DNA of 28,823 nucleotides from Catajapyx aquilonaris (Eukaryota), in assembly GCA_000934665.2 (NCBI GenBank), contig KZ538431.1, forward strand, positions 62,001 to 90,823, written 5' to 3'. The notes under the pieces are model-generated. The model did not search any database. It was given only the letters and a program-made list of their open reading frames with translations, and was not told where the DNA came from. Position numbers and translations under genes: made by a program. Below, one piece after another: positions 7,078 through 26,909 of the stretch (position 1 is its first letter; each line of letters begins with the position of its first letter).

Positions 7078-8585
7078 CACAAAAATTCAAGTTTGTAGGT
7101 CCAGACTGTTGACGTTACTTTCCAGCACAGATAATTACCCGATGGTCATCCGCATATTCCGAAATTGTGGTTCCTTGAGAGTGTCGCATCAGGCCGGGAT
7201 CCCTGTAAATTGCATTACCATAACAGGAAATAACGCCGGCCATTCTAAAAGGATAATCACGGGCCATTAGCTCATCCCCACCGAAAAAGGAATCCTTAAT
7301 GTCATTACCAAGGTCGGGCCCATTTTGGATAGCCGGAAAAAGGATCATATGTTCACGTCATAATCATCACACACAATAGACTCTTCCTGATGATTCCCTC
7401 GAGATGAGGACCATAAAAATTTTGATGGCCACCCTGCAAGGCTTCCCCGAAAAACTGGGCACAGGTCCTCCCGGCCATGAAGGGATAGAAATCGAAATTT
7501 TCTCTTTTGCCACGAGTTATATGGTCCCTGGAGCCAAGGTGGCAAAAAGATGGCCGCCGTTATTATCCGGGACCGTCCCCCTTTTTTGCAAGATTTCGAA
7601 GACAGCACAGAGAACGGTAATTCAGGAGACTCGAAATGGTGGGTCATTTTGCCAGGATGACGGCGAAGTAACGTCACTCGTTAAACACACGTGAGGTCCC
7701 CCCCCCTTCCCAGATGATTAAATGGTCTCTTGTCCAAAGGGAAAGAATCTCCCCCAAAAGGCGGGGGAAAAGGTTGCGGTACATGAGGGAGGGGGGGGGG
7801 GAAGTCATAGATGTCACAATACTTGGCTATTTTTTTATTCATGCCGACCGTGTACGTGCATGTGTTGTAAGTAAGGTCTCATTAAAAGTGAAGGCAAGGC
7901 GCGGTTAGGGACGGCGTGTCATATATATATATGAACACACGCATGTAAGGCAATGCGACAGCCGTATCATGCGACGTCTGCCAGCCGAAATTAATTAAAG
8001 AGCGTTGTTAAGGAGCTTGTCCAATCATGAAGATCCTCAGGAATAGCTTTTATGTCCGCGGAGGGAGAGATGTTGGGCAACGAGAGAAAAAAAGAGAACA
8101 GTTCTTTTCCACGACTTAGCAGATGAGACACGTACGTCCTGTCATGTAATTGTCATTGAAGTCGGTTTGGCAAAGCGGTCCAAAGTCCCTTTATGCAATT
8201 CCAGATGGATCGTGTGGATGGTACAGCAGAGGTCCTTGGATCGCACCCCGGAGGAACCTGGAGTCCCAGGCCATGCAGGTAAAGGCTCGCTTACGTCGTG
8301 GCCTAATCACCTGATCTGTCCCGTAATGAGGGCCAAATGGTTCACGCGAACGAGCACTTTTTTCCCCCCCCCCTTACTGCATGAGACTACTCTCAGGCAA
8401 CCCTTTCGCCTCTGGGAATGCTCAAGCAGACCCCGAGATATAACCAGAGGACAATGTGTTCCAATTGAGCTCAGAGCACACAAGGAGCCGACACAAAAAT
8501 TGTGGAAAAAATCGTAATGGGCGACCTAATGTGGCAGGAGTAGGGGCACGCTGCACCAACCTATCCCATGGGCAAACTTCCCGGC

Positions 8586-8700
8586 GGATACACCCCTATT
8601 CTTAGAGGATACACGGCTATCCTTCAGCGGATACAGCGATATTCTTAGAGGATACACTGCCATCCTTCAGCGGATACACCATATCTTTCAACAGTATACA
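8586..8700. repeat. Minisatellite of 21/22-nt monomers forming a 43-nt higher-order unit
   Basis: GGATACA starts at 8586, 8607, 8629, 8650 and 8672 (degenerate copy at 8694). Monomers alternately end in TATTCTTAGA and ATCCTTCAGC. Confidence 0.9.
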
Positions 8701-18521: not shown

Positions 18522-19345
18522 TTATAAACCTTTTTAAAAAAAATTCGGTATCAATGTTTGTTTGGAAATTATGTGTAATATATAGGATATATACCTCTTG
18601 TGCACTATTTTTTGCCAGCTGACTCGAATAACACCTTTTATGCAGTGTACCGGATCAGCACCGGAACAATTTATTCTGAACATTTACGGGCGTGGATTTT
18701 GCTTCTAATTAAGCCCTCCCCTACTTATAGAGCCCGGTTTTAGAAACACACAAAGTTTCCATTCCGCGCGCCAGAAGCAGGCTGGCAGCGAGCGGGGGGG
18801 TTGGAAGAGTATACGGCGGGGCTCTCCGAAAAAAAAAAAAAAAAAGTGTTAACACATTCATGCATATCAAAAATTACTTGCCACAGAATTAGCATTTAGA
18901 TTGTGGTAAGCAAGTCTAGGGAGAGTTAGCGAGGTGAGGCGTCTCTGGGGGCCATCACATGCAAACTTAGGCTTGTTTATTCATGACTGGGGGTAAGGCT
19001 GGAAGCGGGCGGGTTGGTGGGGGTAAAAAAAAGTGTGTGTGTATGTATACAAGGGGTATAAGAGAGAAAAGGCCTACCAAAAAGGATGGAGCGGGAAGGT
19101 GGATGGTGTCTGTTGGGCGGTCAGCCATCCTCTGAAAGAAGCTCTAGTTGGTGGTGCCGCCGGCCACCAGAGCTATCCTCCTCCTCCTCCTCTTCTTTCT
19201 TTTTTTTGGGGGGTGGGGAGGGTGTGGGGGGCCCAAGGATGATGCTGGGTGTGGGGCCCCTGTGCAGCCCCGGTGCAGCCAAAACAGATGATAATTGTAT
19301 GACACGGCGCGGCTGGCGGATCGTGACGTGTGTGGCCCCGGATTG

Positions 19346-19541
19346 GCCCCCGGGAGCGTGCGCGCGCGGGGATAGGACGAGGTCCGGGGCCTGAGAGGCG
19401 TGGCCTGGCGCCGGGACTAACATGTCAATAGTACTCGCGTGGCTTTATGTCTCTCCTGGGGGGAGGGGCCCATGGGAGCCCGGCTGAATGCGAACAATAT
19501 TTGTGAGCAACAAAATCCCCCCCCCCCCCCTTCCCCAGAGC
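19346..19541. promoter_or_regulatory. Promoter-proximal cluster of COE/EBF-like sites
   Basis: GCCCCCGGGA 19346, TCTCCTGGGG 19452, GCCCATGGGA 19468 and TCCCCAGAGC 19532, versus the consensus TCCCNNGGGA. Confidence 0.4.
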
Positions 19542-19585
19542 TTCGACATCAAATTGTCTGGACCTAGTGAGCCATTCGATGGTTA

Positions 19586-19620
19586 TCATTCGGGCGTTTA
19601 TCTAGCCCTTAGCCGCACAC
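19586..19620 (+). promoter_or_regulatory. Candidate TATA-less core promoter (Inr plus DPE-like element)
   Basis: TCATTC at 19586-19591 matches the arthropod Inr TCAKTY (+1 = 19588). GCACAC at +28..+33 fits the degenerate DPE set DSWYVY. GC/CpG-rich region upstream and a GAGA tract at 19671-19690 downstream. An alternative Inr match TCAGTC lies at 19907-19912. Confidence 0.4.
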
Positions 19621-19916
19621 ACACTGGCTTTGCTGCAACCTGCTGGTTGGGTAGTAGTGTGGTGGTGGATAGAGAGCAAGAGAGAGAGAGGTGTGTGTAC
19701 CTGCAGGGTCTGAGCGCGACTGGCCCGGTTCTCTCTTCTGGGGGGATTTGTACACTGGCAGCGTCGGCGGCGTCGTGGAGCAAGGCAGGAGCTAGGAAGC
19801 AGGCGTGCACACAACGCAAAGGACTGGACCACCGCCGCCGCATCTCAAGCCTCCAGTTGGGACTCGGGGTGTCCAGGGTCGAGCACCGCCCCTACTCTCC
19901 ATCCACTCAGTCTCTC

Positions 19917-19958
19917 ATGAGAGCCGCAAGTGGGCCCACCTCAACCTCAACTTCCTAA
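19917..19958 (+). other. Upstream ORF (MRAASGPTSTSTS*) in the putative 5' leader
   Basis: The only ATG I found between the candidate TSS (~19588) and ATG 20317. It is out of frame with Collier and ends at TAA 19956-19958. Confidence 0.5.
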
Positions 19959-20007
19959 CCTGTCCCTTGGACATAGTCTCCCTGGTGACCCCTGCTGGGC
20001 CAGCACC

Positions 20008-20316
20008 GTGGCCTCCTCGACGGACGGCCTGGCGACGCTCGGCCTTTGCTGCTTTCCCCCGACGCACCATCACCACCACCATCACCACCACCACCATCAT
20101 CCGGCTGAGTGCGGGTGTGGTTTGCGGACTGCTCCACCGACGGCCAACGTCGTGCCCGCGGCATCGTCACCGTCGGTAGCCGCCGTTGCACCGCCACCGC
20201 CGCCGGCACCACCGCCGCCTCCGCCGCCGCCGCCGCCTCCCTCAGCGGCCGCCGTTTCCTCTCCATCCTCCGTCGCCGCCGCTACCACCACGGCGACGCC
20301 CTGGCCCACCAAGTTC
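20008..20316 (+). CDS. Putative in-frame N-terminal extension of Collier (His12, Pro-rich and Ala/Ser-rich), candidate GUG start
   Basis: The frame is open from the TGA at 19918-19920 to ATG 20317 with no in-frame ATG. GTG 20008 lies in accGTGg context. CAC/CAT and CCN repeat variation falls on third codon positions in this frame. The start position is inferred. Confidence 0.5.
20065..20100 (+). repeat. (CAY)12 trinucleotide repeat, poly-His in the Collier frame
   Basis: CAC CAT CAC CAC CAC CAT CAC CAC CAC CAC CAT CAT. Confidence 0.9.
20191..20241 (+). repeat. (CCN)n repeat, poly-Pro in the Collier frame
   Basis: 16 CCN codons (CCG/CCA/CCT/CCC) interrupted by one GCA. Confidence 0.9.
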
Positions 20317-20450
20317 ATGTTCGGCCTCCAGGACGCCGCCGCCCTGCACCAGCCCCGAGGGCCCGTCACCTCCCTCAAGGAAGAGCCGCTGTCCACCTCG
20401 CAGCTGGGGCCCAGGTCATGGATGCAACCGGCTATGGTTGACCAGAGCAA
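20317..20450 (+). CDS. kn: Collier/Knot (COE/EBF) transcription factor, conserved coding exon 1 (134 nt, ends in phase 2)
   Basis: Translates MFGLQDAAALHQPRGPVTSLKEEPLSTSQLGPRSWMQPAMVDQS. MFG...KEEPL...WMQ is the COE N-terminal signature, and QPRGPVTSLKEEPL...MQP..DQS matches Drosophila Collier as recalled. Followed by the donor AA|GTGAGT at 20451. Confidence 0.93.
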
Positions 20451-23400
20451 GTGAGTGTCCAACCAACAACATCCATCCTTATATAATTATTGGTTGCTCG
20501 CAAGTGTAAGCACGTGGCTATAAATGCATATCAGGCCTAATCACAAATATATATAAGTAAGCACGCGGTTGACAGAAACAAAATGGCGTGTGTTGTGGTT
20601 TAAGATTACGTGATTACCTGGCTAAATGCTTTGTAAATATGTATGGGGATGTTCAGCCGGTGTTTAGAGATAAAGAATACATGCCGGTGCCAGAAGCTAG
20701 GCCTAATTTGCAGCACATGTGTACAGGTTGAACTATTCTGATAATAGTGTTTTCGGGTAGTCCTAAAGTGGTTGTGTGCAGTGTGTGCCCTTGACCTCCA
20801 AAAAGTGTGTGTTTGTGTGCTGTGAACAATGTGTTGTAAGCTCAATTTCGGCCTAAAATTACAGAGCAATCTATGAGCCGTATTGACAGTGGAATAGTAG
20901 GCATACTTGCACGCATGCGAGTGTGAATAGCTATAGGTATGCCACTGGGGGGTTCGTAAATGTGTGTTTACACATTTTTGGGACTCTGGCCAAACATCTC
21001 CCATCGCGAGCATTTGTGCTTTGAAACAACAAAAAAAAAAAGTATAGCAAACGAGCGATAAACCCTAATCTATAAACCTTCAGGGAATACTTTCTTTCCG
21101 GAGCAATTTTCCAACACAAAAAAATGATAGTGTTAAGAAAAAGGTCAAAAGTTTACAACCCGAGCTGATCAAAATCACTGTTGCGTCTGCTCCCAAATTT
21201 GCGGGAATTCATAGTAAAATGCATCCCTGTGTGTTATTGAATAGTACAGGGTGTGTCCCCAGGGTGACATATCGTGGGTGGGCCTCCCCCCACTTGTAGG
21301 CAGCCCTTGGGCACTTGGGGGGGTTGCCCGCAGGCAATACCCGCGGAGATTACCCCCACGGGTGGTCTCTCTCTCTTGGGTCATTCGCCGCTGGGGGCAC
21401 ATTTTAAGCCCCCGTCTCTTGCAAACCGTACCCCACACCTTTTAGATGCCGAGAGACGAAAAAAAGGAGTTTCTGGAAAGGAGCAAATGTTCCTCACTTC
21501 CTTTTTTTTTTGTAGCTAACCACCCACAAGTTGTATGTCAATCGATTGTTGCGATGCTGATGTTTTTAAATTGGGTCCAGGCAGTTTAACCCTGAGCATC
21601 TCGCGATTGCGGGGCCCCAAAGCACGTGTTTTCTTTTCCAAATGGCGCAGGCATGTGCGGGGCGGATGGGGGTTTTTCAAAAAAATAAAATAAATTTTGG
21701 TGGGGATTCTGCATGGAGATGGATTAGATGCTTTTTGCATCAGGACGAACTGCTGGAAGACAGGCGGAATTTGTAACTGCGCAGCCGAACCCCTCTTTTT
21801 TCTCCGTCTTCTTCTTTCTTGGGGGCTCTCTCTCTCTCGCTCTTGCCTTGCTTCTGCTGGATAGAAAACTGCTGGCATTAAAGTGCCGGCAGAACCCTGC
21901 GGAATGAATGTTTCCAAGTGTATATAGTTGTTCGTAAATCAATAAGTAAGAACATTGATCCTATTCCGGGGAGGCTGGCTATTTGTGAAAGTCTCGGAAC
22001 GAATGCAGTGCTGCAGAAGAATATTTCAAAACACTGCTCGTATACTGCTGGCCAGACTTATTGAGGTTAGTTTGTGTTTTGGGTAAGTTAGCATTTTCCA
22101 TTGCGCCAGTGAATGTTACATTTACTTGTTTTAGTGCAGCCGTATAGATGCACATGAATATTTAAAAATAAGATGTAACCGAAAAATGTGCATAATAACG
22201 CAACAAGATGCTGTGAATCTAGCAGGTTAACCGAAGCTATATAAGCGCAATTGCATTTATTTAGTGGAGTAATGAATTAATAATGTAGCACACAAAATTG
22301 TGATCTGATTATTGTAATGGGAATATTAAAATTATCAATATTGCAATAAGCCCACATTTTACGTGTTCATGTTAATTCCATTAATTCTTGCTAAATTCCA
22401 TACTAGAAGTATGTGGTTTTATTTATCATTTCAGACTGTGTACAGAATGTTACAGAGAGTGACAAAATCATGTTACTTTGTCGATGCATGTTGCGTATGA
22501 ATCCTCAGTGGGCTGCCATAGTTGTATAGAGTAAGTCATAATCGCGCAACAAATGATTCGACATAAAATCACACTATCAGAGCACATTATGGCTGCACTG
22601 AAAAGAGCAGTGGTCATAAAAGTTATTTATTAACTGCCTCGTGAAAAATTATTCGGGCCACGGTTTGTGCCTCGCACCGTGACCGTAATCGTCGCCTGTT
22701 TTTTTTTTAAACAAGTATCCTTGTATGTGTGCAGCACATTCAGCAAAATGATACCTGCGAAATTTTGGCTCCGGACATTTGACATGACGTAGACGTTTTG
22801 TTTCTACCCCCCCNCCCCCCCCCCCCTGCCACTTTTGCAGAGAAAATATCAGCTATATGCAAGAGAGAGAGAAAAAACTCGAAAAAAAAAATCCCCAAAA
22901 TGAGACTCGCGGATGTAGTTAACGCGCTAGATCCCTGGGCTTAATCGAAACAGCATTGGGTTAGTCCGGCGCATAATCGGGTTAAAATTTAGATTGCTGC
23001 ATGATACAAAGGAATTTTGTGTGTGGGTGTGTGTCTGTTGTTATACGTTTTGGGATGGGGTGTCCAACCACTGGCGGCGGATACAAAATTAATATAGCCC
23101 CTCGACAGCACATGACCTTCGTCCAGGATCATTATCAAAGGCAAAATAAACTCTAAGCAGATTCAAAGTAACGCAATTAGCCGCTGTAATCTAGTCAATT
23201 GCGGCGCACCTGGAATGAATGTTCCATGCTATGTGCAAGTGTCTTAACTGTCAGGGAGAGTTTCAAGCGCCGCTCGAAAAGTGTTTTGGCACCGTGCAAA
23301 CTCTGGTTAAATTTTCCTGCCCTGCTGCCCCCCCTCCTATATACTCTGTACCTCTCACCTCACTTATTGCTGCAAGCCATGTCCCGCAGCCTACCACATC

Positions 23401-26755: not shown

Positions 26756-26909
26756 TGTGGGCATAGGGCGGGCCCACTTCGAGAAACAGCCACCCAGCAA
26801 CCTCCGAAAGTCCAACTTCTTCCACTTCGTCATCGCCCTCTACGACCGAGCGGGTCAGCCCATCGAGATAGAGCGCACAGCCTTCATCGGCTTCGTGGAA
26901 AAGGACCAG
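26756..26909 (+). CDS. kn: Collier/Knot (COE/EBF) coding exon 2, start of the COE DNA-binding domain (154 nt, phase 2 to phase 0)
   Basis: Poly-T tract plus TTTCAG| acceptor. AA+T completes Asn, then [51 protein letters not shown], the near-invariant COE motif. Donor CAG|GTGAGA at 26910. Codons are GC3-rich compared with the AT-rich flanks. Confidence 0.97.

Follow-up and report, generated by a model that had tools for sequence, protein, structure and literature searches.

Developmental regulator genes include some with GC-rich 5' leaders that bear triplet repeats. Insect Collier proteins with AUG-started N-terminal extensions are likewise already present in annotated gene models, and extensions that begin at non-AUG codons are recognized as a class. 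A link between these last two was not found in the literature searched. Conserved non-AUG-initiated N-terminal extensions are the subject of Ivanov et al. 2011 (PMC3105428), in whose main text the terms EBF, COE, and collier have 0 occurrences. Among the papers listed by our literature searches, none concerned non-AUG initiation of collier/knot, and the peptide string "WGRKLYP" occurred in 0 papers. The terms N-terminal, start codon, RACE, full-length, and alignment are all absent (0 occurrences) from a paper on myriapod collier (PMC3053236).

Here, we analyzed a window of 28,823 nucleotides from Catajapyx aquilonaris (contig KZ538431.1, positions 62,001 to 90,823 of the forward strand), for which a sequence-only reading had proposed a hidden, probably non-AUG-initiated extension of Collier/COE. 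The explanation that we rank as most likely, with middling confidence, is that the stretch in question (19921-20316) is a GC-rich triplet-repeat 5' leader of Collier/COE exon 1, with protein synthesis starting at AUG 20317.

Results

Structure of the collier locus

On its plus strand, the window carries coding exons 1 and 2 of a Collier/COE (EBF-type) transcription-factor gene.

20317-20451, plus strand: conserved coding part of exon 1, MFGLQD...QPRGPVTSLKEEPL...WMQPAMVDQS, with the donor GTGAGT next, at 20452
26756-26909, plus strand: exon 2, the start of the COE DNA-binding domain, preceded by a pyrimidine-rich acceptor

Both the identity of the gene as a COE (Collier/Olf/EBF) transcription factor and this exon structure are directly documented. 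Exon 2 (26757-26909) matches the Pfam profile PF16422 COE1_DBD with 94.9 bits (cutoff 27; profile positions 32-81 of 231), and it is 96% identical to Cryptotermes collier over 52 residues. Exon 1 carries the N-terminal COE block MFG[LI] ... Q[PV]RGP.T.LKEEPL ... WMQP, and the residues Q, R, G, P, T, L, K, E, E, P, L, R, W, M, Q, and P are invariant across an alignment of 13 sequences that includes the window. No COE exons beyond these two were found within the window.

Exon 1 lies at the 3' end of a single continuous GC-rich island (19000-20460; 59-68% G+C), the rest of the window having 32-56% G+C and the downstream intron 42%. Two kinds of sequence in which assemblies often err occur in the island upstream of the leader, namely, about 13 consecutive C (19517-19530) and GA/GT dinucleotide repeats (19676-19700). 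Far upstream of collier, a tandem repeat at 8584-8684 can be described with a period of 43 (2.4 copies) or 21 (4.4 copies).

The region immediately before the conserved coding part of exon 1 contains the following features.

19917-19958, plus strand: upstream ORF of 13 codons, MRAASGPTSTSTS, from the out-of-frame ATG 19917 to the stop at 19956-19958
19918-19920, plus strand: in-frame TGA, the 5' end of the open Collier frame
19921-20316, plus strand: candidate extension of 132 sense codons in the Collier frame, free of ATG in any frame; 5' leader in the leading reading
20008-20010, plus strand: in-frame GTG (accGTGg; A at -3, G at +4), 103 codons before the ATG
20029-20031, plus strand: in-frame CTG (ggcCTGg; G at -3, G at +4), 96 codons before the ATG
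20065-20100, plus strand: (CAC/CAT)12 tract, His12 in the Collier frame (8 CAC and 4 CAT; TRF periods 3, 12, and 15)
20098-20115, plus strand: HPAECG codons, weakly resembling HP[AV]E[RC]GY at the start of the conserved insect extension
20191-20241, plus strand: Pro-rich tract of 17 codons, 16 Pro and 1 Ala (11 CCG, 2 CCA, 2 CCT, 1 CCC, 1 GCA)
20244-20245, plus strand: acceptor-like AG after 16 pyrimidines in 20 bases, at which an upstream exon might be spliced in
20284-20310, plus strand: TTTATPWPT codons, weakly resembling insect TASPWPA (TTATPWP core at 20287-20307)
20290-20292, plus strand: in-frame ACG (accACGg; A at -3, G at +4), nine codons before the ATG

Several observations of the sequence-only reading are borne out by this inventory, namely, the run of 132 in-frame sense codons without an in-frame ATG (19921-20316) between TGA 19918-19920 and the MFGL ATG, the mixed codons of the His and Pro tracts, and the contexts of the candidate starts at 20008, 20029, 20290, and 20317. 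The MFGL ATG at 20317 has a weak context (ttcATGt; T at -3, T at +4). The ATG at 19917 is the sole one within 19580-20316, and there is none in any frame from 19920 to 20316.

Coding signals in the candidate extension are weak or neutral

An open frame of this length is unremarkable for its composition. Of 5000 dinucleotide-preserving shuffles of 19717-20316, 22.6% had a frame open for 132 or more codons ahead of the ATG (P = 0.226). The other five frames of the island (19000-20460) have open runs of 127, 156, 90, 120, and 108 codons. G+C at the first, second, and third codon positions is flat in the stretch (0.72/0.69/0.69), the corresponding values being 0.67/0.49/0.87 in the coding part of exon 1 and 0.59/0.35/0.82 in exon 2, and the third-position value reaches 0.73-0.93 only in the last 65 bases upstream of ATG 20317. 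The codon-position composition of 19921-20316 thus does not support coding.

Departures from the repeat unit fall on the third codon position in 4/4 cases in the His tract (all CAT) and in 6/7 cases away from CCG in the Pro tract. According to TRF, the His tract contains exact repeat units of 12 and 15 bases, so its CAT codons may not have arisen independently. On the minus strand, an ORF of 129 codons (20097..20486) translates the Pro tract into G11-A-G5, again varying at third positions; the Pro tract is therefore equally synonymous in this poly-Gly frame, and the strand cannot be told from the synonymous pattern. The claim that the interruptions are synonymous in the Collier frame stands, but it does not discriminate in the way proposed, leaving an argument that is real but soft.

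A significant departure from expectation concerns ATG itself. The span 19580-20316 holds 1 ATG versus 5.0 expected (P = 0.0105), and 19000-19579 holds 11 versus 12.1 expected, with the depletion starting near 19580. This suggests that 19921-20316 belongs to an mRNA leader that is scanned by ribosomes, and it fits a leader start near 19580-19900; the depletion does not separate an untranslated from a coding leader. Two Inr-like hexamers are found in the ATG-poor span, TCATTC (19587-19592) and TCAGTC (19907-19912), and a transcript start may lie near either of them. No start-enhancing RNA structure was found downstream of GTG 20008, CTG 20029, or ACG 20290 in comparison with shuffles (z = 0.28, -0.47, and 0.92, respectively).

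Insect Collier proteins have a conserved N-terminal extension

In insects, both exon-1 ORFs and gene models encode, directly before MFGL and in the same exon and frame, a conserved extension with the pattern KTRSDE ... E[RC]GY ... TASPWP ... [DE]LDPV.AAWGRKLYP ... GL-MFGL. WGRKLYP is its best conserved part, and the extension and MFGL form one contiguous genomic ORF. An AUG start is placed 58-70 residues upstream of MFGL in the Coccinella septempunctata X2-X4 and Ceutorhynchus assimilis models, the Popillia japonica model also annotates the extension with an AUG start, and a fly-like ORF (P0029) begins with MEWGRKLYP. Three models have MFGL as their start, namely, those of RefSeq for Cryptotermes secundus and Bemisia tabaci and one for Menopon, and extension-bearing ORFs with near-identical exon-1 sequence exist beside those of Cryptotermes and Bemisia. 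One insect ORF (P0009) has VFGL after ASPWP...WGRKLYP, where all others have MFGL; translation must therefore start upstream in that species, the canonical Met being missing. Several gene models omit the well-conserved N-terminal extension of insect Collier. Insect orthologues P0002-P0011 also have His runs inside the conserved block (MFGLHHHQD ... LHHHHHHHHQPRGP).

A metagenome scan for collier exon 1 returned seven loci (L001-L007), six of which (L001-L006) are termite-like, with 56/58 residues of exon 1 matching the Cryptotermes N-terminus. Upstream of MFGL, their frame runs without a stop for 74 codons (71 in L006), as far as an invariant TAA. This open frame is the full insect extension (KTRSED ... 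TASPWP ... AAWGRKLYP; e.g., L004:2956-3180), and the number of in-frame ATGs in it is 0 across the six loci. The 231 bases before the ATG have three substitution columns, 3/3 at third codon positions, and one 9-base deletion, and the first 170 coding bases have nine variable columns, eight at the third position and one at the first. Between -598 and -232, about 51 variable columns fall in all phases, together with single-base indels. Low divergence alone is not proof of coding, because L001 and L004 also differ little over -950 to -551 (L004:2231-2630; 6 differences in 400 bases); this block, nearly as conserved as the coding part, could represent promoter, enhancer, or 5' exon sequence. The coding case for the termite-like extension comes instead from the phase pattern together with protein conservation across insect orders.

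Judged on this comparative evidence, the termite-like extension is coding, yet it has no AUG in its own exon; its start would be either an AUG from an unannotated upstream exon or a non-AUG codon, for which the AUA/ACG immediately after the TAA is a candidate. The termite RefSeq model starts at MFGL, so the extension looks unannotated there. A TATAAA that precedes the termite-like extension by 60 bases was rejected as a possible promoter mark, as it carries a substitution in 1/6 loci. In the remaining locus, L007 (MMFGIQDS), a stop closes the frame five codons upstream, and there is no extension. A coding extension that lacks an in-frame ATG in the termite-like loci means that an untranslated reading is not the default for this gene family.

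The Catajapyx frame compared with the insect extension

Homologues were sought with the 177-residue ORF (extension plus MFGL...DQS) as the protein query. Among the 31 matches from 1.84 billion representative proteins, nothing aligned to residues 1-125 except low-complexity proteins, and all genuine matches fell on the MFGL...DQS block. P0012, P0013, P0015, P0030, P0034, and P0035 aligned to residues 44-141, and the four of them that were inspected (P0012, P0030, P0034, and P0035) are repeat or low-complexity proteins. Word-based protein searches, in which low-complexity words crowded the scoring, gave 8 matches, and 2 among 8000 scored candidates, all restricted to the MFGL...DQS part. No relative of the Catajapyx lineage was found in the protein or contig searches. 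Pfam found no domain on the extension or on the 177-residue ORF, Rfam had nothing in the window at gathering thresholds, and tblastn with beetle Collier matched nothing upstream of 20314, leaving the beetle extension unmatched.

WGRKLYP is absent from the window, none of the variants W[GS]RKL, GRKLY, RKLYP, and W.RK.Y occurs in any of its plus frames, and LDPV and KTRSDE were not found there either. The two weak matches, HPAECG and TTATPWP, are in frame and in the same order as in insects, with about 55 low-complexity residues between motifs that are adjacent in insects. A profile of 17 insect extensions gives the window frame 4.0 bits, a score reached by 16/2000 composition shuffles (0.8%). 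With 19 extensions, the score is 3.2 bits, reached by 52/5000 full and 133/5000 tract-preserving shuffles (1.0% and 2.7%, respectively). The minus-strand frame scores 2.5 bits on the 19-extension profile, so 3.2 bits is close to noise. The likeness, spotted post hoc, is a hint in the 1-3% range and does not demonstrate homology.

Discussion

In the explanation that we favor, 19921-20316 would be transcribed as the 5' leader of collier, and the main protein would start at the conserved MFGL AUG 20317. The rarity of stop codons at 70% G+C would explain why the Collier frame is open, (CAC)n and (CCG)n would keep phase because slippage adds or removes whole triplets, and a low number of upstream AUGs would be a requirement for a scanned leader to reach an AUG in weak context. 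We infer both the transcription of the stretch and the absence of its translation. It can be read in frame with Collier and is thereby a candidate extension. In favor of a leader, we count the open frame at chance level, the flat composition over codon positions, the failure to find a homologue of the extension, the missing WGRKLYP, the ATG depletion, and the lack of an unusual RNA fold at the candidate starts. Against it, we count the conserved coding extension of insects in the same exon and frame, the ATG-less but codon-like extension of the termite-like loci, the position of the window frame above 97.3-99.2% of composition-matched shuffles on the insect profile through HPAECG and TTATPWP, the third-position interruptions, the high GC3 of the last 65 bases, and the weak AUG context.

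The first rival explanation is initiation at a near-cognate codon, which would yield a longer Collier isoform beside the AUG form, either from GTG 20008 or CTG 20029 (with His12 and poly-Pro) or from ACG 20290 (nine residues). We hold this as a tentative possibility. Scanning ribosomes would meet no AUG after 19917 before the MFGL AUG with its weak context, and the open, ATG-free frame offers three near-cognate codons with a purine at -3 and G at +4. The synonymous repeat interruptions point the same way, as does the weak resemblance to the insect extension (4.0 and 3.2 bits on the two profiles). The family also provides a precedent in L001-L006, where the extension has no in-frame ATG and all its substitutions are at third positions. 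The Cryptotermes and Bemisia models begin at MFGL despite the existence of extension-bearing ORFs. However, a frame that is open at chance level and compositionally flat over codon positions, without homologues among the proteins searched and without WGRKLYP, argues against translation, as do the 2.5 bits of the minus frame, the equally synonymous Pro pattern on the minus strand, and the lack of an enhancing hairpin. Family precedent and motif hints raise the odds of a non-AUG start, which are lowered in turn by codon statistics that are flat, by the absence of the core motif, and by the lack of homologues.

A broader evolutionary scenario, which we consider rather doubtful, would make the Collier extension old in Pancrustacea and ancestrally non-AUG initiated. 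Termites would have retained this state, beetles and flies would later have gained AUGs at different places, and the window would hold a divergent version with His12 and poly-Pro expanded between ECG and PWP and a start at GTG 20008 or CTG 20029.

The start could instead be an AUG supplied by an upstream exon, spliced, for example, at AG 20244/20245, so that the part proximal to MFGL would be coding and His12 and poly-Pro intronic. This is unlikely. The AG follows a tract of 16 pyrimidines in 20 bases, the third-position G+C rises to 0.73-0.93 only in the last 65 bases, TTATPWP lies downstream of the AG, and the beetle Colliers (Coccinella X2-X4 and Ceutorhynchus) begin with an AUG some 58-70 residues before MFGL. 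On the other hand, the whole insect extension is contiguous with MFGL in one genomic ORF, the block 19000-20460 is one GC-rich island unlike the 42% G+C intron, and HPAECG lies upstream of the AG. No insect-like N-terminal exon was found in the 19.9 kb upstream, although one of a few codons would escape detection.

An assembly error in the repeats, hiding a frame change that joins an upstream ATG such as 19917 to Collier, is highly improbable in spite of the repeats and C-run nearby, because the change would have to fall in 19920-19958, before the stop of the upstream ORF (19956-19958), where there is no homopolymer or repeat, and because 98-99% of the words sampled from the stretch are present in four DNA runs, although these runs are probably the source of the assembly and hence not independent. 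In other runs, the share of sampled words was 0.11 in one metatranscriptome run and next to none in another.

If the favored account of 19921-20316 as a plain leader is correct, the finding is an ordinary one. If the stretch is translated, about 100 extra disordered residues (His12, poly-Pro, and Ala/Ser/Thr runs) would precede the Collier DNA-binding domain in an isoform missed by standard annotation; such tracts can alter nuclear localization, condensate behavior, or activation strength. The more useful result lies outside the window, in an insect extension that is omitted by gene models and ATG-less in termite-like loci, which allows a straightforward family-wide test of a non-AUG start or an unannotated first exon.

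Among the known systems, the class described in PMC3105428 is defined by cross-species coding conservation, and the window resembles it in sequence features, with an in-frame open leader without AUG, near-cognate codons in good context, and high G+C. Compared with the insect Collier extension, the window is without WGRKLYP, LDPV, KTRSDE, and an AUG and has His12 and a 17-codon Pro tract, both of which are missing from insect extensions. The His runs of insects lie downstream of MFGL, whereas the window has none there and carries His12 about 70 codons upstream of it. The two are alike in gene, exon, and frame, in being contiguous with MFGL (the window frame being open over 19921-20316), and in their internal low-complexity Ala/Pro runs (A8-PPP in the termite-like loci). 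A plain leader predicts neither interruptions confined to third positions nor two insect-like motifs. Yet the window shares with the triplet-repeat leaders of developmental regulators its (CAC)n and (CCG)n repeats, its 70% G+C, its few upstream AUGs, and a frame whose openness is at chance level.
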